Of a stretch of DNA of 34,071 nt, positions 6,900 to 34,071 are shown piece after piece. A model generated the notes under the pieces. That model was not told where the DNA came from, ran no database searches, and saw only the letters and a program-made list of their open reading frames with translations. The stretch lies in IMG/VR virus record IMGVR_UViG_2721755657_000001, positions 1-34,071 of that record; one strand, written 5' to 3'. A program made the translations under genes and the position numbers. Numbering within the stretch: position 1 is the first letter of the stretch; every line of letters starts with the position of its first letter. The DNA is from a virus (taxonomy: Duplodnaviria > Heunggongvirae > Uroviricota > Caudoviricetes).

Positions 6900-7105
6900 T
6901 GCACAGAATACCAGGCGAGATACCGCACCATAAAACTAAAAATATCAAGCTGATGGCTATTGTTCAGCGTTTACAGCGGATTATGGTCAACGAAAATCTG
7001 ACGCCCGATGAGCTGGTCGGGTGTGCCGAAATAGTACGGGATAATTACGGGCGGCTTAACTATATCGGTCAGTCCAGAGTTGCGCCACCACCACGCAGAC
7101 GATAG
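6899..7105 (+). CDS. Small hypothetical protein (68 aa), coupled to upstream gene
   Basis: ATG at 6899 in a TAATG overlap with the upstream stop. Arg/Pro-rich C-terminus. Backbone-like base composition. Confidence 0.4.
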   Translation: MHRIPGEIPHHKTKNIKLMAIVQRLQRIMVNENLTPDELVGCAEIVRDNYGRLNYIGQSRVAPPPRRR

Positions 7106-7328
7106 AGAACGCCGCCAGTTGTGAAACTTGTTTTCAGGGCTGGCGGGGTTGAACAACGAGCGAAGCGAGACGTTAGTTGACAGACATATTTTTACTACGT
7201 TGGTGCTGGTTTTTGACGGTTGAAAGGAGTTAGGTTGGAGAGCTAACAACTTACAAATATTCAAAAGTAAGCATCCTGTTGCTAACATGAGGTTGATTTT
7301 TTATGTGGATGATGCAAAAAGGATAGCT

Positions 7329-8060
7329 ATGGATACTATAATCGCTTTTCTATCACTCGCTTTTTTCGTTGCTTTCTTCATCGGGCTAATCAAGCCATCA
7401 CTGGTGCGAATGCCAAACCGCAAACGTGCAAGTGCGGTTTATCTCGGAGGAGGTTTTGTATTGAGCATAATTGGTTCAATACTCTATCCAACAGAAAAAA
7501 GCCAGCCAGTTGCTAAAACTGAAACATCAACCGTTGCAGAACACAAAGTCCAAAAAACATTCGAATATGGTGAAAAAACACTCAAGGAATATCGGAACGA
7601 GTCAAAGAAAACACGACACGATATTGTGAATAGTTACATTGATTTTAAGGAAGTTCCAGCCACCGCGTCAGATGCGTTTTATGCCTGCATGAGTGAGTAT
7701 ACATTTACCAAAGATGATGAGTTGAAACTCGGTGATGTTCTTGGGTGGTGCTTTAATGATTATGAAAATGACCCGAGTTCACTAAACAATAAAATCAATC
7801 TTGATACATTTCAGAGTAATTTTAGTGGTTGGGATGGTTCTTATCGTCCATTGGAAAAACTAATTAAAGATAATATGAACGATGATTCATCTTATAAACA
7901 TGTGTCAACGGTATATCATCTGGTTTTGAATAAAGACCCGCATGCCATTGTGAAAACCACGTTTCGCGGAACTAATGCTTATGGCGGAGTAGTGAAACAG
8001 ACGATTGCTGCGCGTGTCAATGTAGAAACAGGTGAGGTTGTATCAATTATAAGTGAGTGA
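7329..8060 (+). CDS. Cargo gene 1 in the A-cos (tin/old) slot: membrane-anchored protein of unknown function
   Basis: ATG at 7329 with AAGGA SD 5 nt upstream (alternative ATG at 7287 has no SD). Two N-terminal hydrophobic segments (IIAFLSLAFFVAFFIGLI, VYLGGGFVLSIIGSILY) followed by a ~190-aa soluble domain. Visibly AT-rich relative to flanking phage genes. Confidence 0.65.
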   Translation: MDTIIAFLSLAFFVAFFIGLIKPSLVRMPNRKRASAVYLGGGFVLSIIGSILYPTEKSQPVAKTETSTVAEHKVQKTFEYGEKTLKEYRNESKKTRHDIVNSYIDFKEVPATASDAFYACMSEYTFTKDDELKLGDVLGWCFNDYENDPSSLNNKINLDTFQSNFSGWDGSYRPLEKLIKDNMNDDSSYKHVSTVYHLVLNKDPHAIVKTTFRGTNAYGGVVKQTIAARVNVETGEVVSIISE

Positions 8061-8158
8061 ACTGTGCCAGAATGATAAAGATGCCAGCATTTATGCTGGC
8101 AATCATAAAAATAGTGACTAGCAAAAATTGGTGTCTGGTTTTAATGTGAGATTAGAAA

Positions 8159-8857
8159 ATGAAGAGATGTAAATATATTTTAAGAGGTTTGTTGCTGAAG
8201 TTTAAAAGTATAAGTTCTATGCATTTGTTATTTGTTTTAATAACGGCTTGTCTATTCTTTTTTATAGGGTGTTACGTGGGTTATAGTGGTATTGGTTTGA
8301 ATGGTGACACTAAATACCAATTAATTACAATACCTTTTTTGACCATGTTGGGTACTTGGGTTTCTGGGGTGGGAGCATTTTCTGCTGTTGCGACATCATT
8401 GTTGTTGGCACACCGTTCGCTAAAGGAAAATTCAGAAGAAATTGCTATTCGATATAGCATGGTGTTAATACCATCAATGTACTTACCTAGCACTACAGAT
8501 ACAGCAATATCAATAACCATAACAAACAAAAGAAAAGTAAGGAGTAATATTCAATCGGTTGTTTTGCAATTTTCTAATAATAAAGCAATGAATATATGGG
8601 TAAACCCCGGGACGCTTATCTCTGGCAAGTTACCGCATGTTTTAGAAGACTATGGTGATATATTGACGCTTATAATTCCAGAGAGCATTACCGCATCAGT
8701 AACTGATGAGGGGTTCGTAAAAGAATGTCAGGGGAATACTCTTGGAGAAGGTAGCGTCGTAGTTCACACAACGACAAAAACATTTGTAAAAAAATTAACA
8801 TTACCTCAAATTAAGCCATTTAATGATAAATTTAAGTCTGTATTGACGAAGCCGTAA
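8159..8857 (+). CDS. Cargo gene 2 in the A-cos slot: membrane/lipoprotein-like protein of unknown function
   Basis: 232-aa ORF. Basic N-terminus, then hydrophobic stretches (LLFVLITACLFFFIGC, possible lipobox FIGC; second stretch AFSAVATSLLLA), then a ~140-aa soluble C-terminal region. AT-rich. 98 bp downstream of cargo gene 1 on the same strand. Confidence 0.6.
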   Translation: MKRCKYILRGLLLKFKSISSMHLLFVLITACLFFFIGCYVGYSGIGLNGDTKYQLITIPFLTMLGTWVSGVGAFSAVATSLLLAHRSLKENSEEIAIRYSMVLIPSMYLPSTTDTAISITITNKRKVRSNIQSVVLQFSNNKAMNIWVNPGTLISGKLPHVLEDYGDILTLIIPESITASVTDEGFVKECQGNTLGEGSVVVHTTTKTFVKKLTLPQIKPFNDKFKSVLTKP

Positions 8858-13061: not shown

Positions 13062-14135
13062 ATGCGCCAGGAAACCCGCTTTAAATTTAATGCCTACCTG
13101 TCCCGTGTTGCCGAACTGAACGGCATCGACGCCGGTGATGTGTCGAAAAAATTCACCGTTGAACCGTCGGTCACCCAGACCCTGATGAACACCATGCAGG
13201 AGTCCTCTGACTTTCTGACCCGCATCAATATTGTGCCGGTCAGCGAAATGAAAGGGGAAAAAATTGGTATTGGTGTCACCGGCTCCATCGCCAGCACCAC
13301 CGACACCGCCGGTGGCACCGAGCGTCAGCCGAAGGACTTCTCGAAGCTGGCGTCAAACAAGTACGAATGCGACCAGATTAACTTCGATTTTTATATCCGC
13401 TACAAAACGCTTGACCTGTGGGCGCGTTATCAGGATTTCCAGCTCCGTGTCCGTAACGCCATTATCAAACGCCAGTCCCTTGATTTAATCATGGCCGGTT
13501 TTAACGGCGTGAGGCGTGCCGAAACCTCTGACCGCAGCAGCAATCCGATGCTGCAGGATGTGGCGGTCGGCTGGCTGCAGAAATACCGCAATGAAGCCCC
13601 GGCGCGCGTGATGAGCAAGGTCACTGACGAGGAAGGTCACACGACCTCTGAGGTCATCCGCGTGGGTAAGGGCGGTGATTATGCCAGCCTCGATGCACTG
13701 GTGATGGATGCGACCAACAACCTGATTGAGCCGTGGTATCAGGAAGACCCTGACCTTGTGGTGATTGTGGGGCGTCAGCTACTGGCGGACAAGTATTTCC
13801 CCATCGTCAACAAGGAGCAGGACAACAGCGAAATGCTGGCCGCTGACGTTATCATCAGCCAGAAACGCATCGGCAACCTGCCGGCGGTACGCGTCCCGTA
13901 CTTCCCGGCGGATGCGATGCTCATCACGAAGCTGGAAAACCTGTCCATCTACTACATGGATGACAGCCATCGCCGCGTGATTGTGGAAAACCCGAAACTC
14001 GACCGCGTGGAGAACTACGAGTCAATGAACATTGATTACGTGGTGGAAGACTATGCCGCCGGTTGTCTGGTGGAAAAAATTAAGGTCGGTGACTTCTCCA
14101 CACCGGCTAAAGCGACCGCAGAGCCGGGAGCGTAA
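13062..14135 (+). CDS. N: Major capsid protein
   Basis: 357-aa ORF after O, AGGA SD. P2 gpN position. Confidence 0.92.
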   Translation: MRQETRFKFNAYLSRVAELNGIDAGDVSKKFTVEPSVTQTLMNTMQESSDFLTRINIVPVSEMKGEKIGIGVTGSIASTTDTAGGTERQPKDFSKLASNKYECDQINFDFYIRYKTLDLWARYQDFQLRVRNAIIKRQSLDLIMAGFNGVRRAETSDRSSNPMLQDVAVGWLQKYRNEAPARVMSKVTDEEGHTTSEVIRVGKGGDYASLDALVMDATNNLIEPWYQEDPDLVVIVGRQLLADKYFPIVNKEQDNSEMLAADVIISQKRIGNLPAVRVPYFPADAMLITKLENLSIYYMDDSHRRVIVENPKLDRVENYESMNIDYVVEDYAAGCLVEKIKVGDFSTPAKATAEPGA

Positions 14136-18420: not shown

Positions 18421-19206
18421 TTATGAGTGATTTTTATTTGATGCTTTGTATTCTACAACCTTCTTATTGGCGTAAAGGAATTTTGTATATGACAGGAATA
18501 TAACCAGACCTGAAATGAAATAGATGAGGGATATTATTAATAATGCTTTTTTTTGGCTGTTATTATCTTTAATCTCCTGACTTAACCATTCGGAGTCCTC
18601 CTCGTTTAGCTGTAAGAGCTTATTGCAGGCGATCTCAGGAAGTGTGTCTTTTATAAATACGTTTCGTAGCCTCTTGCAATCGGCAAGGCTATAAGTTTTA
18701 TTGAATTCAACTGTTTTATTGTTGAAGGATAAAAGAACTTTGTCACTATAAACATAGTACATCATATTTTTATATGGTATGCCTATGGCATCTCTTACTA
18801 TAGCGGATTGTTTGTTGTGTATATAACATGCGAAGAGAATATAAATAACACTGGACAGAATTACAATTATTGTTTTAATTATGTGTGGTGGTTTTGTTAT
18901 GTCACCCCAGAAGCGAGTAAGAAAAAAATACGATGTTTTTAGTTTTCCATCAATCAGCCCCTGCTGTATCATTCTCACATCTTCGATGCCTGATACATTG
19001 ATTCCGTTAATTATTTTAAATAGTTGAATGTCGCGCCATTTTTTGTCGAGCATTTTTAACTTTCTGTCTGAATACTCAAAATTGAAATGATGTGCAATAA
19101 ACCTCATAAGATTACTTTTACCAAAGGTAATAAATGTTAATGCTATTAATAAAAATAGATACAAAGAGATAAACCACCACGCATTAGTCACATTATCACT
19201 GAACAT
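18421..19206 (-). CDS. Cargo gene in the S-V slot: membrane protein with three hydrophobic segments, unknown function
   Basis: 261-aa ORF on the strand opposite to the late operons, with GAGGAG SD 6-7 nt upstream of its ATG. Hydrophobic segments near residues 9-28, 110-128 and 222-240. Strongly AT-rich. Confidence 0.7.
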   Translation of the reverse strand: MFSDNVTNAWWFISLYLFLLIALTFITFGKSNLMRFIAHHFNFEYSDRKLKMLDKKWRDIQLFKIINGINVSGIEDVRMIQQGLIDGKLKTSYFFLTRFWGDITKPPHIIKTIIVILSSVIYILFACYIHNKQSAIVRDAIGIPYKNMMYYVYSDKVLLSFNNKTVEFNKTYSLADCKRLRNVFIKDTLPEIACNKLLQLNEEDSEWLSQEIKDNNSQKKALLIISLIYFISGLVIFLSYTKFLYANKKVVEYKASNKNHS

Positions 19207-21715: not shown

Positions 21716-24034
21716 ATGAGCACAAAATTCAAAACCGTTATCACCACTGCCGGTGCAGCAAAGCTGGCAGCGGCAACCGCGCCGGGAGGGCGGAAGGTCA
21801 ACATTACCACGATGGCCGTCGGGGATGGCGGTGGTAAATTGCCTGTCCCGGATGCCGGACAGACCGGGCTTATCCATGAAGTCTGGCGACATGCGCTGAA
21901 CAAAATCAGCCAGGACAAACGAAACAGTAATTATATTATCGCAGAGCTGGTTATTCCGCCGGAGGTGGGCGGTTTCTGGATGCGTGAGCTTGGCCTGTAC
22001 GATGATGCGGGAACGTTAATTGCCGTGGCGAACATGGCCGAAAGTTATAAGCCAGCCCTTGCCGAAGGCTCAGGACGTTCGCAGACCTGCCGCATGGTCA
22101 TTATCGTCAGCAGTGTGGCCTCAGTGGATCTGACCATCGACACCACAACGGTGATGGCGACGCAGGATTACGTTGATGACAAAATTGCAGAGCACGAACA
22201 GTCACGACGTCACCCGGACGCCTCGCTGACCGCAAAAGGTTTTACTCAGTTAAGCAATGCGACCAACAGCACGTCTGAAACACTGGCCGCAACGCCGAAA
22301 GCGGTTAAGGCCGCATATGACCTTGCTAACGGGAAATATACCGCACAGGACGCTACCACAGCGCGAAAAGGTCTTGTCCAGCTAAGTAGTGCGACCAACA
22401 GCATGTCTGAAACGCTCGCCGCAACACCAAAAGCGGTTAAGGCAGCGTATGACCTTGCTAACGGGAAATACACTGCACAGGACGCCACCACAGCGCGAAA
22501 AGGTCTTGTCCAGCTCAGTAGCGTCACCAACAGCGATTCTGAAACGCTTGCGGCAACGCCAAAGGCGGTTAAGACAGCGTATGACCTTGCTAACGGGAAA
22601 TACACTGCACAGGATGCCACCACCGCGCGAAAAGGTCTTGTCCAGCTCAGTAGCGCCACCAACAGCGATTCTGAAACGCTGGCTGCAACATCAAAAGCGG
22701 TAAAGTCTGCCTATGACAATGCTGAAAAACGTCTTCAGAAAGATCAGAACGGTGCGGATATTCCGGGAAAGGATACCTTCACGAAAAATATCGGTGCCTG
22801 TCGTGCTTATAGCGGCGCTTTGAGCACTGAAGCCGGAAACTGGACAACCGCTCAGTTTATTGAATGGCTGGATTCCCGTGGTGCATTTAATCATCCGTAC
22901 TGGATGTGCAAAGGCTCCTGGTCATATGCAAATAACAAAATCATTACGGATACCGGATGTGGTGATATCCACCTGGCTGGTTGTGTCGTCGAGGTCATGG
23001 GAACTAAATCTGCAATCACTATCCGAGTGACCACGCCGACAACATCAAGCGGTGGCGGTACAACCAGCGCGCAATTCACTTACATAAATCATGGGGACGG
23101 CTACTCCCCCGGCTGGCGTCGTGACTGGAATCGTCAGGGCGACGCAATGACCGGAACGATTAATCAGGATGGCGGAAGCCAGAATGCCTATATGTCTACG
23201 GCCTTATGTTCAGGCACCAGAGGCGGCAAAAAATATCTCAGAAAGTTTCGTGGTGGAGAAGGAGACACTATCTGGCATGAAACAGTACAGGGCGGGGTAG
23301 TTCGCTGGGCGACTGGTAATACTGATGCTCAGGAAGAATTATCACTCAGCTCCGCTTATGGTCTCCGTTCAAGAGGTGAGATTACATCAAGCAGTGCTAA
23401 TGGTCTGCGCATTGCTTATGGCAATTATGGATTCTTTATCAGGAATGATGGCAGCAGCACTTATTTTATGTTGACTAAATCAGGTGACAGATTAGGCACT
23501 TATAATAATTTAAGACCACTGATTATAAATGATGCCACGGGTGCTGTATCAATGGGGCATGGCCTGAGTGTTACAGGTGATATTGTCTCAAGCACCAAAG
23601 TACGTGCCGGTAGCGGGAAAAAGTTCACGGTCAGCAGCAGCAATACATCCACGAAGGAAGCCGCATTCAATTTGTGGGGAAACTCAAGTCGTCCTGTGGT
23701 GGCTGAATTAGGTGATGATGCAGGCTGGCATTTTTACAGTCAGAGAAATACAGATAACAGCATCACTTTTGCTGTTAACGGGCAGGTATCACCATCTAAC
23801 TATGGAAACTTTGATTCACGCTATGTCCGGGATATCCGGCTTGGTGGTGCTGCCACATACAAACCTGCGAACAATGGTATGACATGGACACATCAGGCAC
23901 CGTCCGGGTGTGTATATTCCGGCATTATTGTTCAGGATACCGGCTCAAACTCTGCCGATAACATTGGTGGCGTATATTACAGACCGGTGCAGAAATACAT
24001 TAACGGGACTTGGTATAACGTGGCGCAGGTATAA
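21716..24034 (+). CDS. H: Tail fibre protein H
   Basis: 772-aa ORF with an internal 44-aa tandem-repeat region and a Gly/Ser/Thr-rich C-terminal region. Followed by the tail-fibre assembly gene. Confidence 0.9.
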   Translation: MSTKFKTVITTAGAAKLAAATAPGGRKVNITTMAVGDGGGKLPVPDAGQTGLIHEVWRHALNKISQDKRNSNYIIAELVIPPEVGGFWMRELGLYDDAGTLIAVANMAESYKPALAEGSGRSQTCRMVIIVSSVASVDLTIDTTTVMATQDYVDDKIAEHEQSRRHPDASLTAKGFTQLSNATNSTSETLAATPKAVKAAYDLANGKYTAQDATTARKGLVQLSSATNSMSETLAATPKAVKAAYDLANGKYTAQDATTARKGLVQLSSVTNSDSETLAATPKAVKTAYDLANGKYTAQDATTARKGLVQLSSATNSDSETLAATSKAVKSAYDNAEKRLQKDQNGADIPGKDTFTKNIGACRAYSGALSTEAGNWTTAQFIEWLDSRGAFNHPYWMCKGSWSYANNKIITDTGCGDIHLAGCVVEVMGTKSAITIRVTTPTTSSGGGTTSAQFTYINHGDGYSPGWRRDWNRQGDAMTGTINQDGGSQNAYMSTALCSGTRGGKKYLRKFRGGEGDTIWHETVQGGVVRWATGNTDAQEELSLSSAYGLRSRGEITSSSANGLRIAYGNYGFFIRNDGSSTYFMLTKSGDRLGTYNNLRPLIINDATGAVSMGHGLSVTGDIVSSTKVRAGSGKKFTVSSSNTSTKEAAFNLWGNSSRPVVAELGDDAGWHFYSQRNTDNSITFAVNGQVSPSNYGNFDSRYVRDIRLGGAATYKPANNGMTWTHQAPSGCVYSGIIVQDTGSNSADNIGGVYYRPVQKYINGTWYNVAQV
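22235..22735 (+). repeat. 132-bp tandem repeat (about 3.8 copies) inside H, encoding a 44-aa repeat
   Basis: Unit starts at about 22238, 22370, 22502 and 22634 (KG[FL][TV]QLS..TNS.SETLAATPKAVK.AYDLANGKYTAQDATTAR). Copies are near-identical at the DNA level. Confidence 0.85.
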
Positions 24035-24037
24035 TTT

Positions 24038-24565
24038 ATGCAGCATTTGATAAATATAACGGCAGGTAATCCAAAAACGGTTGAACAATATCAATTGACA
24101 AAAGACTTTGATGTTGTCTGGTTTTTTTCAGAAGATGGTAAGAACTGGTACGAAGAACAAAAGTATTTTGCTGATGACACGCTAAAAATAGCGTACGACA
24201 AAGATAATATCATCCGCTATGTGGAAAAGGATGTGACAGCTATCAGACCGGATGGATTAAGTGTGGTTGAAGTGGCGGATATTACTGCTAACCGACGGGC
24301 GGACATTTCAGGGGGCTGGATGTTTAAGGGCGGCAAAGTGATTAAACGCATTTATACGGCAGAGGAATTGCAGCAGCAGGCAGAAAACCGGAAAGCCAGA
24401 CTTCTTGCAGATGCTGAATCCGTGATTTTGCCGCTGGAGCGCGCTGTCAGGCTGAATATGGCTACAGAGGAGGAGCGCACACGACTGGAAGCATGGGAAC
24501 GCTACAGCGTTCTGGTCAGTCGTGTGGATCCTGCAAATCCTGAATGGCCGGAAATGCCGCAATAA
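24038..24565 (+). CDS. G: Tail fibre assembly chaperone G
   Basis: 175-aa ORF immediately downstream of H. P2 gpG position. Confidence 0.88.
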
Positions 24566-25000
24566 GTTGTATGAGCTCTGGTGTGAGCTTACATATCTAT
24601 GGCACAGAGTAAAGACTAATCTGACAGTCCGCTCTGTGCCAGGAGCAGCCATTGCTAAGTCCATCCTGTATTGTGCAGGTCAGCTCGTTTTTAAAGAGTC
24701 CGGCCATCATCTTACTGGTACAGACACCATATACTTTGTGACGGTCAGGCTACATATGCACAACTCAACTTATTCATCTATTTTTTGCTTTAGCATGTCA
24801 GTGTTGCTTTCTCGTCGGCGGGTGAGCGGTGACCTGACCTGTCGATAAAGGAACGTAGCACGTTTTATGCAACACCCGCATGCGGCAGAAAATTATTGCC
24901 GAACGTTTACCCCTGTCAACAAGCTTTACTTTCTGAGGCGCGCCAGCCCGCGAGGAAAACAATCTGAACATCAAACAATTAATGACACAAGAAATACGAT

Positions 25001-25027
25001 TAAAGATTTTTTTGTGCATGCCGATAG
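25001..25027 (+). promoter_or_regulatory. Near-consensus sigma-28 (FliA) promoter upstream of the FlxA-like gene
   Basis: TAAAGATT (25001..25008), 11-nt spacer, GCCGATAG (25020..25027), against consensus TAAAGTTT-N11-GCCGATAA (14/16). Followed by GGAG SD and the ATG at 25051. Confidence 0.7.
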
Positions 25028-25050
25028 TGCTTTTTTAAAAGGAGAAATCT

Positions 25051-25383
25051 ATGTCTGTCACAATTCAGGGAAATACCTCAACCGTTATTTCAAACAACTC
25101 CGCCCCAGAAGGAACATCAGAAATAGCCAAAATCACAAGACAAATTCAGGTGCTGACTGAAAAGCTTGGGAAAATCTCATCGGAAGAGGGGATGACGACA
25201 CAGCAGAAAAAAGAATTAGCTGCATTGGTACAGAAGCAAATTGAAAGCCTCAGGGCTCAACTGGAGCAGTTGTTAAGGCAGCAGGCAGAGAAAAAGAATA
25301 AAGACGCGACAGTTCAGCCTGATAAAAAAGAAGAGAAAAAAGACGATACAAATACCGCTGGCACCATTGATATTTACGTCTAA
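25051..25383 (+). CDS. flxA: FlxA-like small charged coiled-coil protein (cargo in the G-FI slot)
   Basis: 110-aa ORF with strong SD (AAGGAG), Gln/Lys/Glu-rich coiled-coil-like sequence, its own sigma-28-type promoter and terminator. Size, composition and FliA-type promoter match my recollection of E. coli FlxA; identity is recall-based. Confidence 0.6.
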   Translation: MSVTIQGNTSTVISNNSAPEGTSEIAKITRQIQVLTEKLGKISSEEGMTTQQKKELAALVQKQIESLRAQLEQLLRQQAEKKNKDATVQPDKKEEKKDDTNTAGTIDIYV

Positions 25384-32709: not shown

Positions 32710-34071
32710 TCACTTACCGTGGGGATTACGCGTGGTTTCCCCGGAGAAATTACGCATCAGCAGCGCGTAATTGAGCTCAAGATCCTGCGGGACCGGGAGC
32801 CACACAGTATAACCATCGCCTGGTGCTATCGGCATAGCTTCGCCTTTGGCGTTTTCCATGTGCTCAAGGGTAAAATTAATGTTGCCTTGCGGCGTCATCA
32901 GCTCAAGGCTGTCGCCAACGGAGAATTTATTTTTCACCGCTACCGCCGCGAGGTCCCCCTTGCGCTCACCGGTAAACTCACCAACAAACTGCTGGCGGTC
33001 AGAAACTGAATAACCGTATTCGTAGTTCTGATAATCGTCGTGAGTATGACGACGCAGGAAACCTTCGGTATAGCCACGATGCGCTAGACCTTCCAGAGTT
33101 TCCAGCAGGCTGGTATCGAACGGTTTTCCCGCAGCGGCGTCATCGATAGCTTTGCGGTAAACCTGTGCGGTGCGTGCACAATAGTAGAAAGATTTGGTAC
33201 GACCTTCGATTTTCAGCGAATGCACGCCCATTTTGGTCAGGCGTTCTACATGGGCGATGGCGCGCAGATCTTTCGAGTTCATGATGTAAGTGCCGTGCTC
33301 ATCTTCAAACGCGGTCATATACTCGCCCGGACGCTGGGCCTCTTCGATCATAAACACTTTGTCGGTTGGTGCGCCGATACCCAGCGTCGGCTCAACATTT
33401 TGCACCGGAATCGGCTCGTACTTGTGTACGATGTTGCCAACATCATCTTCTTTCCCTTCCTGGACGTTGTACTCCCAGCGGCAGGCGTTGGTGCAGGTGC
33501 CCTGGTTCGGGTCGCGCTTGTTGATATAGCCAGAGAGCAGGCAGCGACCGGAGTAGGCCATGCACAGCGCGCCGTGAACGAAGATCTCGATCTCCATATC
33601 CGGCACCTGATTGCGGATCTCTTCAATCTCTTCCAGCGACAGCTCGCGAGAGAGGATCACGCGGGTCAGGCCCATTTGCTGCCAGAATTTCACCGTCGCC
33701 CAGTTCACGGCGTTAGCCTGCACCGAAAGGTGGATCGGCATTTCAGGGAAGTGCTCACGCACCAGCATAATCAGCCCTGGATCGGACATAATCAGCGCAT
33801 CCGGCCCCATTTCCACCACCGGTTTCAGGTCACGGATAAAGGTTTTCAGCTTGGCGTTGTGCGGTGCAATGTTGACCACGACATAAAACTTTTTCCCCAG
33901 CGCGTGGGCTTCATTGATGCCGAGCTGAAGATTTTCGTGGTTGAATTCGTTGTTGCGCACACGCAGGGAATAACGCGGCTGGCCCGCATAAACAGCATCT
34001 GCGCCATAAGCGAAAGCGTAACGCATATTTTTCAGCGTTCCCGCCGGGGAAAGGAGTTCCGGTTTAAACAT
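32710..34071 (-). CDS. yegQ: Peptidase U32-family protein YegQ (host chromosomal)
   Basis: 453-aa ORF starting exactly at the window edge (MFKPELLSPAGTLKNMRYAFAYGADAVYAGQPRYSLRVRNNEF...), with the Cys-rich motif of U32 proteins. Sequence recalled as E. coli YegQ. Confidence 0.85.
   Translation of the reverse strand: MFKPELLSPAGTLKNMRYAFAYGADAVYAGQPRYSLRVRNNEFNHENLQLGINEAHALGKKFYVVVNIAPHNAKLKTFIRDLKPVVEMGPDALIMSDPGLIMLVREHFPEMPIHLSVQANAVNWATVKFWQQMGLTRVILSRELSLEEIEEIRNQVPDMEIEIFVHGALCMAYSGRCLLSGYINKRDPNQGTCTNACRWEYNVQEGKEDDVGNIVHKYEPIPVQNVEPTLGIGAPTDKVFMIEEAQRPGEYMTAFEDEHGTYIMNSKDLRAIAHVERLTKMGVHSLKIEGRTKSFYYCARTAQVYRKAIDDAAAGKPFDTSLLETLEGLAHRGYTEGFLRRHTHDDYQNYEYGYSVSDRQQFVGEFTGERKGDLAAVAVKNKFSVGDSLELMTPQGNINFTLEHMENAKGEAMPIAPGDGYTVWLPVPQDLELNYALLMRNFSGETTRNPHGK

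Follow-up and report, generated by a model that had tools for sequence, protein, structure and literature searches.

The window, by which we mean the whole stretch of 34,071 nucleotides that was analysed, is a P2-like Escherichia coli prophage. It carries an integrase gene followed by P2-type replication, head, lysis, baseplate, tail and late-control genes, together with the host gene yegQ. The tail-fibre gene H lies in the gene order PF04865 (J) - PF09684 (I) - H - PF02413 (G), which is likewise found in P2 and in fiAA91-ss. The H-G stretch was found in two independent complete genomes, with 100% identity in strain LR-51 and 99.9% identity in an O177:H21 strain, and the RefSeq labels for the two genes of the LR-51 stretch are 'tail fiber protein' and 'tail fiber assembly protein'. 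The annotated prophage of LR-51 is P2-like throughout and is 98.8% identical overall to that of the window, from which its cargo differs at one variable spot. A PADLOC scan of the neighbouring cargo genes for defence genes found none. The features used below are as follows.

583-1596: integrase gene
21716..24034, + strand: tail-fibre gene H of the P2 gpH type, 772 aa (ORF list, translation, PF12571, four PF03406 stretches, PF21446 and gene order)
21716..22168, + strand: N-terminal tail-collar/baseplate-attachment domain of H, aa 1-151 (PF12571 Phage_tail_fib, E 1.9e-58)
22235-22366, + strand: repeat unit 1, aa 174-217 (H frame, unit profile)
22367-22498, + strand: repeat unit 2, aa 218-261 (H frame, unit profile)
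22499-22630, + strand: repeat unit 3, aa 262-305 (H frame, unit profile)
22631-22723, + strand: truncated terminal unit 4, aa 306-336, 31 of 44 residues (unit profile positions 1-31 only)
22700..23173, + strand: middle domain of H, aa 329-486, with similarity to the variable region of the Mu G(-) fibre S' (PDB 8ju3, best-stretch E 1.9e-69)
22715..22771, + strand: linker DNAEKRLQKDQNGADIPGK, aa 334-352, common to Mu S (alignment to Mu S residues 98-174)
23270..24025, + strand: distal tip of H, aa 519-770, with similarity to Mu S (PDB 5yvq, best-stretch E 1.3e-44; PF21446)
Within 23270..24025, + strand: Gp34_trimer (Gp34-type trimerisation) domain, aa 541-604 of H (PF21446, 1.2e-24)
24038..24565, + strand: gene G, tail-fibre assembly protein of the Mu U type (PF02413 Caudo_TAP, 9.3e-34)
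32710-34071: host gene yegQ

The PF12571 match in H spans the entire profile (positions 1-150 of 150), which identifies a P2-type N-terminal domain, and across the 80 retrieved IMG/VR loci its identity never falls below 98%. The repeat family PF03406 (Phage_fiber_2) matches H in four stretches and scores 248.8 bits for the whole protein, where the curated gathering threshold is 22 (E 1.7e-75), and the best of these, at aa 170-210, covers profile positions 1-41 of 42. The initial annotation had placed the repeats in a tail-fibre gene, and this proved correct: the gene is of the P2 H type, and the array is located between the baseplate-attachment domain and the distal receptor-binding half of the protein. 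The GC content drops along H from 55% to 45%. Isolated phages with H DNA that is 87.9-97.4% identical over the shared part form plaques, and H is predicted to form a trimeric virion fibre that would bind the host receptor.

Tandem Repeats Finder reported the array at 22262-22717 with a period of 132, 3.5 copies, 88% matches and a score of 686 (threshold 50); the one other tandem repeat that it found in the whole 34-kb window is a trivial 2-copy 16-mer. A second, independent repeat search returned a 3-member family with 132-nt spacing and a start at 22234. Read in the frame of H, the array amounts to 3.7 copies of a 44-aa unit, and past unit 4 the sequence of H continues like the last stretch of the constant region of Mu S. 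The tandem array described earlier for 22235-22735, with a 132-bp period, a 44-aa unit and about 3.8 copies, was thus recovered both by Tandem Repeats Finder and in the H frame. The copies had also been described as near-identical in DNA, and in this respect the description has to be corrected, since their DNA identity is 74-89%: 87% between units 1 and 2, 80% between units 1 and 3, 89% between units 2 and 3, and 74-87% against the partial unit 4. The longest in-register exact runs over the six unit pairs are 23, 23, 40, 25, 17 and 9 nt, with 40 nt shared by units 2 and 3, 25 nt by units 3 and 4, and 23 nt by units 1 and 2. At the protein level the full units are 86-93% identical, and synonymous codon differences among the units exceed non-synonymous ones by about 3 to 1 (11:4, 13:6 and 8:3).

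When aa 155-360 were modelled as a monomer with AlphaFold2 from an 18-sequence alignment, the pLDDT was 52 and the pTM 0.29, and the model was unusable. In a PDB sequence search with two units the motif was matched in Mu fibre chains only, and in a Mu cryo-EM study the fibre model covers the N-terminus only (PMC11915804). A full-text literature search on the copy number or fibre length of this repeat returned the listing of the PF03406 family and a discussion of mosaicism, and nothing on unit number.

Beyond the array, H is related to the tail fibres of phage Mu. Two solved Mu structures align with H, the G(-) fibre S' (8ju3) over residues 334-487 and the G(+) fibre S (5yvq chain A) over residues 544-771, and a comparison with the Mu genome gave 67.5% identity of residues 329-486 to Mup52 (Sv') and 41% identity of residues 519-770 to the Mu S tip. 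The G protein matches Mu U (PDB 5yvq chain B) over its full length with an E value of 6.4e-81, and is 71% identical to U and 55% identical to U'. The distal half of H and G therefore represent a Mu S/U-type module, that is, a tip and a downstream chaperone homologous to the solved S-U complex. The initial annotation had assigned receptor specificity to the C-terminal part of H together with G, and such a role would fit the homology of the two proteins to the Mu S/S' fibre and the U chaperone. The Mu gix sequence, read from the Mu record, has no match in the window with up to 3 mismatches allowed, and no invertase gene is present in the related annotated prophage of LR-51, so the distal module is fixed rather than invertible. 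A remnant of a Mu-type invertible segment was considered and rejected, as there is no gix-like site and the region 3' of G holds a small ORF and a gene for a FlxA-like protein, with no U', S' or invertase gene.

Copy number was compared among relatives of the window in three sets of sequences. An IMG/VR scan with the N-terminal domain was used to retain the best 80 of 423 relatives, which are not phylogenetically independent, and units were counted in complete ORFs only, using a profile derived from the three full units of the window. There are 5 arrays with 1 unit, 24 with 2 units, 2 with 3 units and 10 with 5 units, while 4 units occur at 35 loci (36 arrays with that of the window); the terminal unit is truncated in every array counted. 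Among the best 120 matches in the protein collection, the number of units is 3-6, and the six-unit proteins (P0007-P0010) have window-like units and distal sequence despite belonging to another N-terminal lineage (66% identity). Alleles in complete genomes were probed with synthetic versions of the window array in which unit 2 was either deleted or duplicated. The resulting 3-unit query was found colinear in one piece in at least 11 complete E. coli genomes at 96.4-98.0% identity, and the 5-unit query in 1 complete E. coli genome at 96.2% identity. With the native sequence as the query, the 40 best complete-genome matches were colinear and had no indel. Among the finished genomes of isolated plaque-forming phages, P2 and Wphi have 2 units, fiAA91-ss and Yersinia phage P37 have 3, and vB_YpM_115 and vB_EcoM-12474III have 4, so fibres of differing unit number work. 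Copy number is thus far from the invariance across all relatives that had been named as evidence against a length-variable array: it ranges from 1 to 6 units, with 1-5 in the 80 contigs, up to 6 in the proteins, and 3, 4 and 5 in complete E. coli genomes, where the sequences flanking the array are ≥96% identical.

From the 4-unit arrays we derived a consensus for each position (p1-p4), and every unit was assigned to one of these. The 5-unit arrays are arranged as p1-p2-p2'-p3-p4 or p1-p2-p3-p3'-p4, and the 3-unit arrays as p1-p2-p4 or p1-p3-p4. One relative with 5 units (L012) corresponds to the H gene of the window with one exact 132-nt in-frame insertion, is elsewhere 95-100% identical to it until the last 300 nt, and has a unit 3 that is a mosaic of two positions. 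In two further relatives (L013 and L042) the extra unit is a nearly exact copy of its neighbour. To judge from these alignments, the hybrid and freshly duplicated units are probably the trace of unequal homologous recombination or slippage between units, which has taken place several independent times.

The same assignment bears on the rate of change. Across 37 four-unit arrays (36 contigs and the window), position-matched units of different phages are 92-95% identical, while units at different positions are 76-88% identical, alike within one array and between arrays. The units are therefore position-specific across phages, and neither homogenisation of units within an array nor concerted evolution is seen in these 37 arrays. 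The units predate the divergence of these prophages. Such a slow tempo speaks for changes in number that are rare and subsequently inherited, and against a fast-switching contingency locus. The array had been annotated as prone to expansion and contraction, which is upheld as far as the locus is polymorphic and bears recombination traces; marked instability is at odds with the position-specific units and with the 4 units present in 14 of 15 window-type fibres.

The sequence that follows the array was grouped into 12 distal types, 10 of which represent full-length fibres. Unit number is constant in 8 of the 10 full-length types, with 2 units throughout the P2 distal type, always 4 in types C4, C5 and C6, and always 5 in type C7. 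The distal type of the window (C2) has 4 units in 14 of 15 arrays and 5 in one, and type C1 has 1 or 2. The sequences diverge at two points, which are located inside the terminal unit, after AVK, in the P2 type and 15-20 residues past the terminal unit in the Mu-linker types; the linker is present in 7 of the 12 types, which split right after it, following 'GADIP.K'. Searched against 5426 complete E. coli genomes, DNA of the array has matches in 1694, at a median of 2 and a maximum of 11 places per genome; among these are lambdoid-type fibre genes, plasmid copies and genes for a 'prophage tail fiber N-terminal domain-containing protein'. The two shared divergence points and the wide distribution of array DNA in fibre genes indicate that the repeat is, in addition, the border at which distal modules are swapped. 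This agrees with the mosaic origin of P2-like H genes that is mentioned, with reference to Garcia 2008, in PMC7460101. Copy number and distal type vary largely together, so some of the variation in copy number may stem from module exchange and not from changes within the array.

Unit number was also related to the length of the distal part. Over the 10 distal types, the Spearman correlation between the two is -0.60 (p = 0.065, uncorrected for shared ancestry), which is a weak hint of length compensation, and total protein length has no relation to unit number. The array might be an adjustable spacer whose unit number is tuned to the distal module, as a selected trait rather than by neutral drift, although we regard this as unlikely. 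If it were true, unit number would be raised for short distal modules and lowered for long ones; alternatively, the reach needed would depend on the receptor (rough versus O-antigen-covered LPS).

In our assessment the array, with high probability, makes up the proximal shaft of a trimeric fibre of the P2 type, made of the known PF03406 repeat and subject to slow length polymorphism by in-frame recombination. According to this model, the shaft repeats lie between the baseplate-docking domain and the Mu-related receptor-binding half, and whole units would be gained or lost when units misalign in homologous recombination or slip during replication, with the frame kept because the 132-bp unit is a multiple of three. 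Over evolutionary time this would give rise to functional fibres with one to six units, while the units have drifted apart at synonymous sites and retain their position-specific identity across phages. Much of the variation in unit number would ride along with the distal module in phage-to-phage exchange. Each unit is expected to lengthen the shaft, and shaft length may matter for adsorption.

A second account overlaps with this explanation instead of excluding it, and we consider it possible, if somewhat doubtful: the repeat would be mainly a conserved recombination linker for swaps of distal modules, with unit number as a by-product of the crossover sites. The motif is recognisable in the DNA of unrelated fibre genes (Mu S, lambdoid side fibres and other prophages of the cell), in keeping with the occurrence of array DNA in 1694 of the 5426 complete genomes, and Mu S bears one unit just before its constant/variable boundary. 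In addition, the point of divergence of all distal types is either inside the terminal unit or 15-20 residues beyond it, unit number goes with distal type, and the six-unit proteins P0007-P0010 share their units and distal part with the window despite their different N-terminal lineage. A mosaic origin of P2-like H genes is also reported in the literature (PMC7460101, citing Garcia 2008). A linker role, however, leaves the changes within a distal type unexplained, namely the insertion in L012, the occurrence of type C1 with 1 versus 2 units, and the alleles of 3 and 5 units between identical types of flanking sequence; moreover, one unit would be enough for it, yet several are retained under purifying selection. 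Returning to the slow polymorphism of the shaft, its opposite would be a contingency locus, the idea of the initial annotation in its strong form, in which high-frequency switching of copy number within a phage or lysogen population produces mixed fibre lengths. The units are indeed tandem and in-frame, relatives differ in copy number, and freshly duplicated units occur in L013 and L042. We nevertheless find such switching improbable, because the units are just 74-89% identical with in-register exact runs of at most 40 nt, are position-specific without homogenisation, number 4 in 14 of 15 window-type arrays, and show no indel in the 40 best genome matches.

Copy-number differences could, in principle, be artefacts of the collapse or expansion of repeats in short-read assemblies, given that the IMG/VR contigs come from draft assemblies and that many database proteins of the family are 'partial', meaning that contigs break in the gene. 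This would be very surprising, as alleles with 3, 4 and 5 units are present in RefSeq 'complete genome' assemblies, unit numbers also vary in the finished genomes of isolated phages, units at 74-89% identity are divergent enough for unambiguous assembly, and the H-G stretch of the window recurs at 100% and 99.9% identity in two independent complete genomes. There is hardly any likelihood that a second gene is hidden in the repeat region, for which the mechanical ORF list offers an antisense ORF (22246-22662, 138 aa) and an alternative-frame ORF (22389-22703, 104 aa). Both were rejected as genes: internal stops break the former in 30 of 38 and the latter in 32 of 38 four-unit arrays of relatives, and long open frames are expected from the repetition of a stop-free unit.

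Three known systems come closest to the array and its gene. One is gpH of P2 (NC_001895, 669 aa) with gpG, which has the same J-I-H-G position and a nearly identical N-terminal domain. As in the window, a PF03406 unit directly follows this domain, and unit 1 is 97-99% identical in DNA. P2 gpH differs in having 1 full and 1 truncated unit, compared to 3 + 1 in the window, and its terminal unit is followed by another distal sequence (AVKTVMDETNKK...) in place of the Mu-like half found in the window. Of the Mu fibre proteins S (G+) and S' (G-), with U and U' (PDB 5YVQ, 8JU3, 9KI1), S has one such repeat unit followed by the same linker (…DNA..RL.KD.NGADIP.K…) as the window. In contrast to the window, the unit in Mu is single and forms no array, the N-terminal attachment domains differ, and distal parts are swapped by inversion of the G segment, for which the window lacks a gix site. 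The family PF03406, 'Phage tail fibre repeat', also occurs in lambdoid side tail fibres and, as domain 'Pf2', in the collagen-like prophage fibre proteins of EHEC. In the latter (PMC3368898), as here, homologues differ in length by a whole number of periods of their repetitive domains. The EHEC proteins have a single Pf2 unit between two collagen domains, whereas the window has a head-to-tail array and no collagen. The repeat family PF03406, the P2-type H gene and the mosaic build of P2-like fibres with a Mu-like half are already known, and the array is ordinary for the P2-like phage group and is not a fast-switching locus.

The natural alleles with 1 to 6 units show that changes in shaft length are tolerated, and that the junction of repeat and linker offers a natural site for fusions. 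Either property can be of use when P2-type fibres or tailocin-like particles are engineered for new host ranges. The repeat array also has a practical consequence for sequencing, in that it often causes short-read assemblies to break inside H.

The distal half of H, the P2-type tail-fibre gene, together with the assembly gene G (22700-24565), was compared with the tail-fibre region of phage Mu. H residues 329-486 share 67.5% identity with the variable part of S', the Mu G(-) fibre, and residues 519-770 share 41% with the tip of S, the Mu G(+) fibre. Judged by sequence comparison, the distal half of H is itself a chimera of Mu S'-like and Mu S-like parts. Of the two Mu fibre chaperones, G is nearer to U (71%) than to U' (55%). 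No gix site, at which Mu inversion crosses over, is left in the window.

Four of the best 120 protein-database matches to H (P0007-P0010) carry an N-terminal domain of a different lineage, 66% identical to that of the window's H, followed by six units of the same 44-aa repeat and then by the Mu S'-like sequence that also follows the array in the window's H. Together with the distal module, the array can therefore be carried onto a different attachment domain. Many H-family proteins among the matches listed are tagged 'partial' and end within or shortly past the array; fibre genes of the H type are evidently a common place for draft assemblies to break.

Outside the fibre genes, the following features were recorded in the window.

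6971-8857: low-GC island flanked by the genes for the replication endonuclease and the portal protein, with ORFs of 105 aa (-), 257 aa (+) and 232 aa (+)
13609-13640: two copies of a 16-nt tandem repeat, TGACGAGCAAGGTCAC, inside the major capsid gene
18421-19206 (-): 261-aa ORF with the tail-completion genes on one side and baseplate gene V on the other
24567-25383: small ORF and FlxA-like gene between G and the sheath gene
25051-25383: the FlxA-like gene itself (PF14282, 3.5e-14)

The island at 6971-8857 has a GC content of 36-39%, compared with about 55% for the prophage. Among 5,426 complete E. coli genomes, only five contain the whole island; at the same site the prophage of strain LR-51, which is otherwise 98.8% identical, has a HEPN-domain gene. 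For the ORFs of the island the only matches were to PHROG families of unknown function; no Pfam family passed its curated cut-off, and PADLOC gave no match. The position is that of the old/tin variable locus of P2, a common site of anti-phage cargo, and for this reason we regard the island as a candidate uncharacterised defence cassette.

The ORF at 18421-19206 (33% GC), which lies on the opposite strand, matches phrog_2407, a family of unknown function, gave no significant match in Pfam or PADLOC, and occurs in 21 records of P2-like phages. It has the look of an accessory gene ('moron') inserted midway through the late operon. The segment downstream of G has a GC content of 42-44%; at this position P2 carries the lysogenic-conversion gene fun(Z). 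The repeat in the capsid gene, with 87% matches and a score at the reporting threshold, is probably due to chance.
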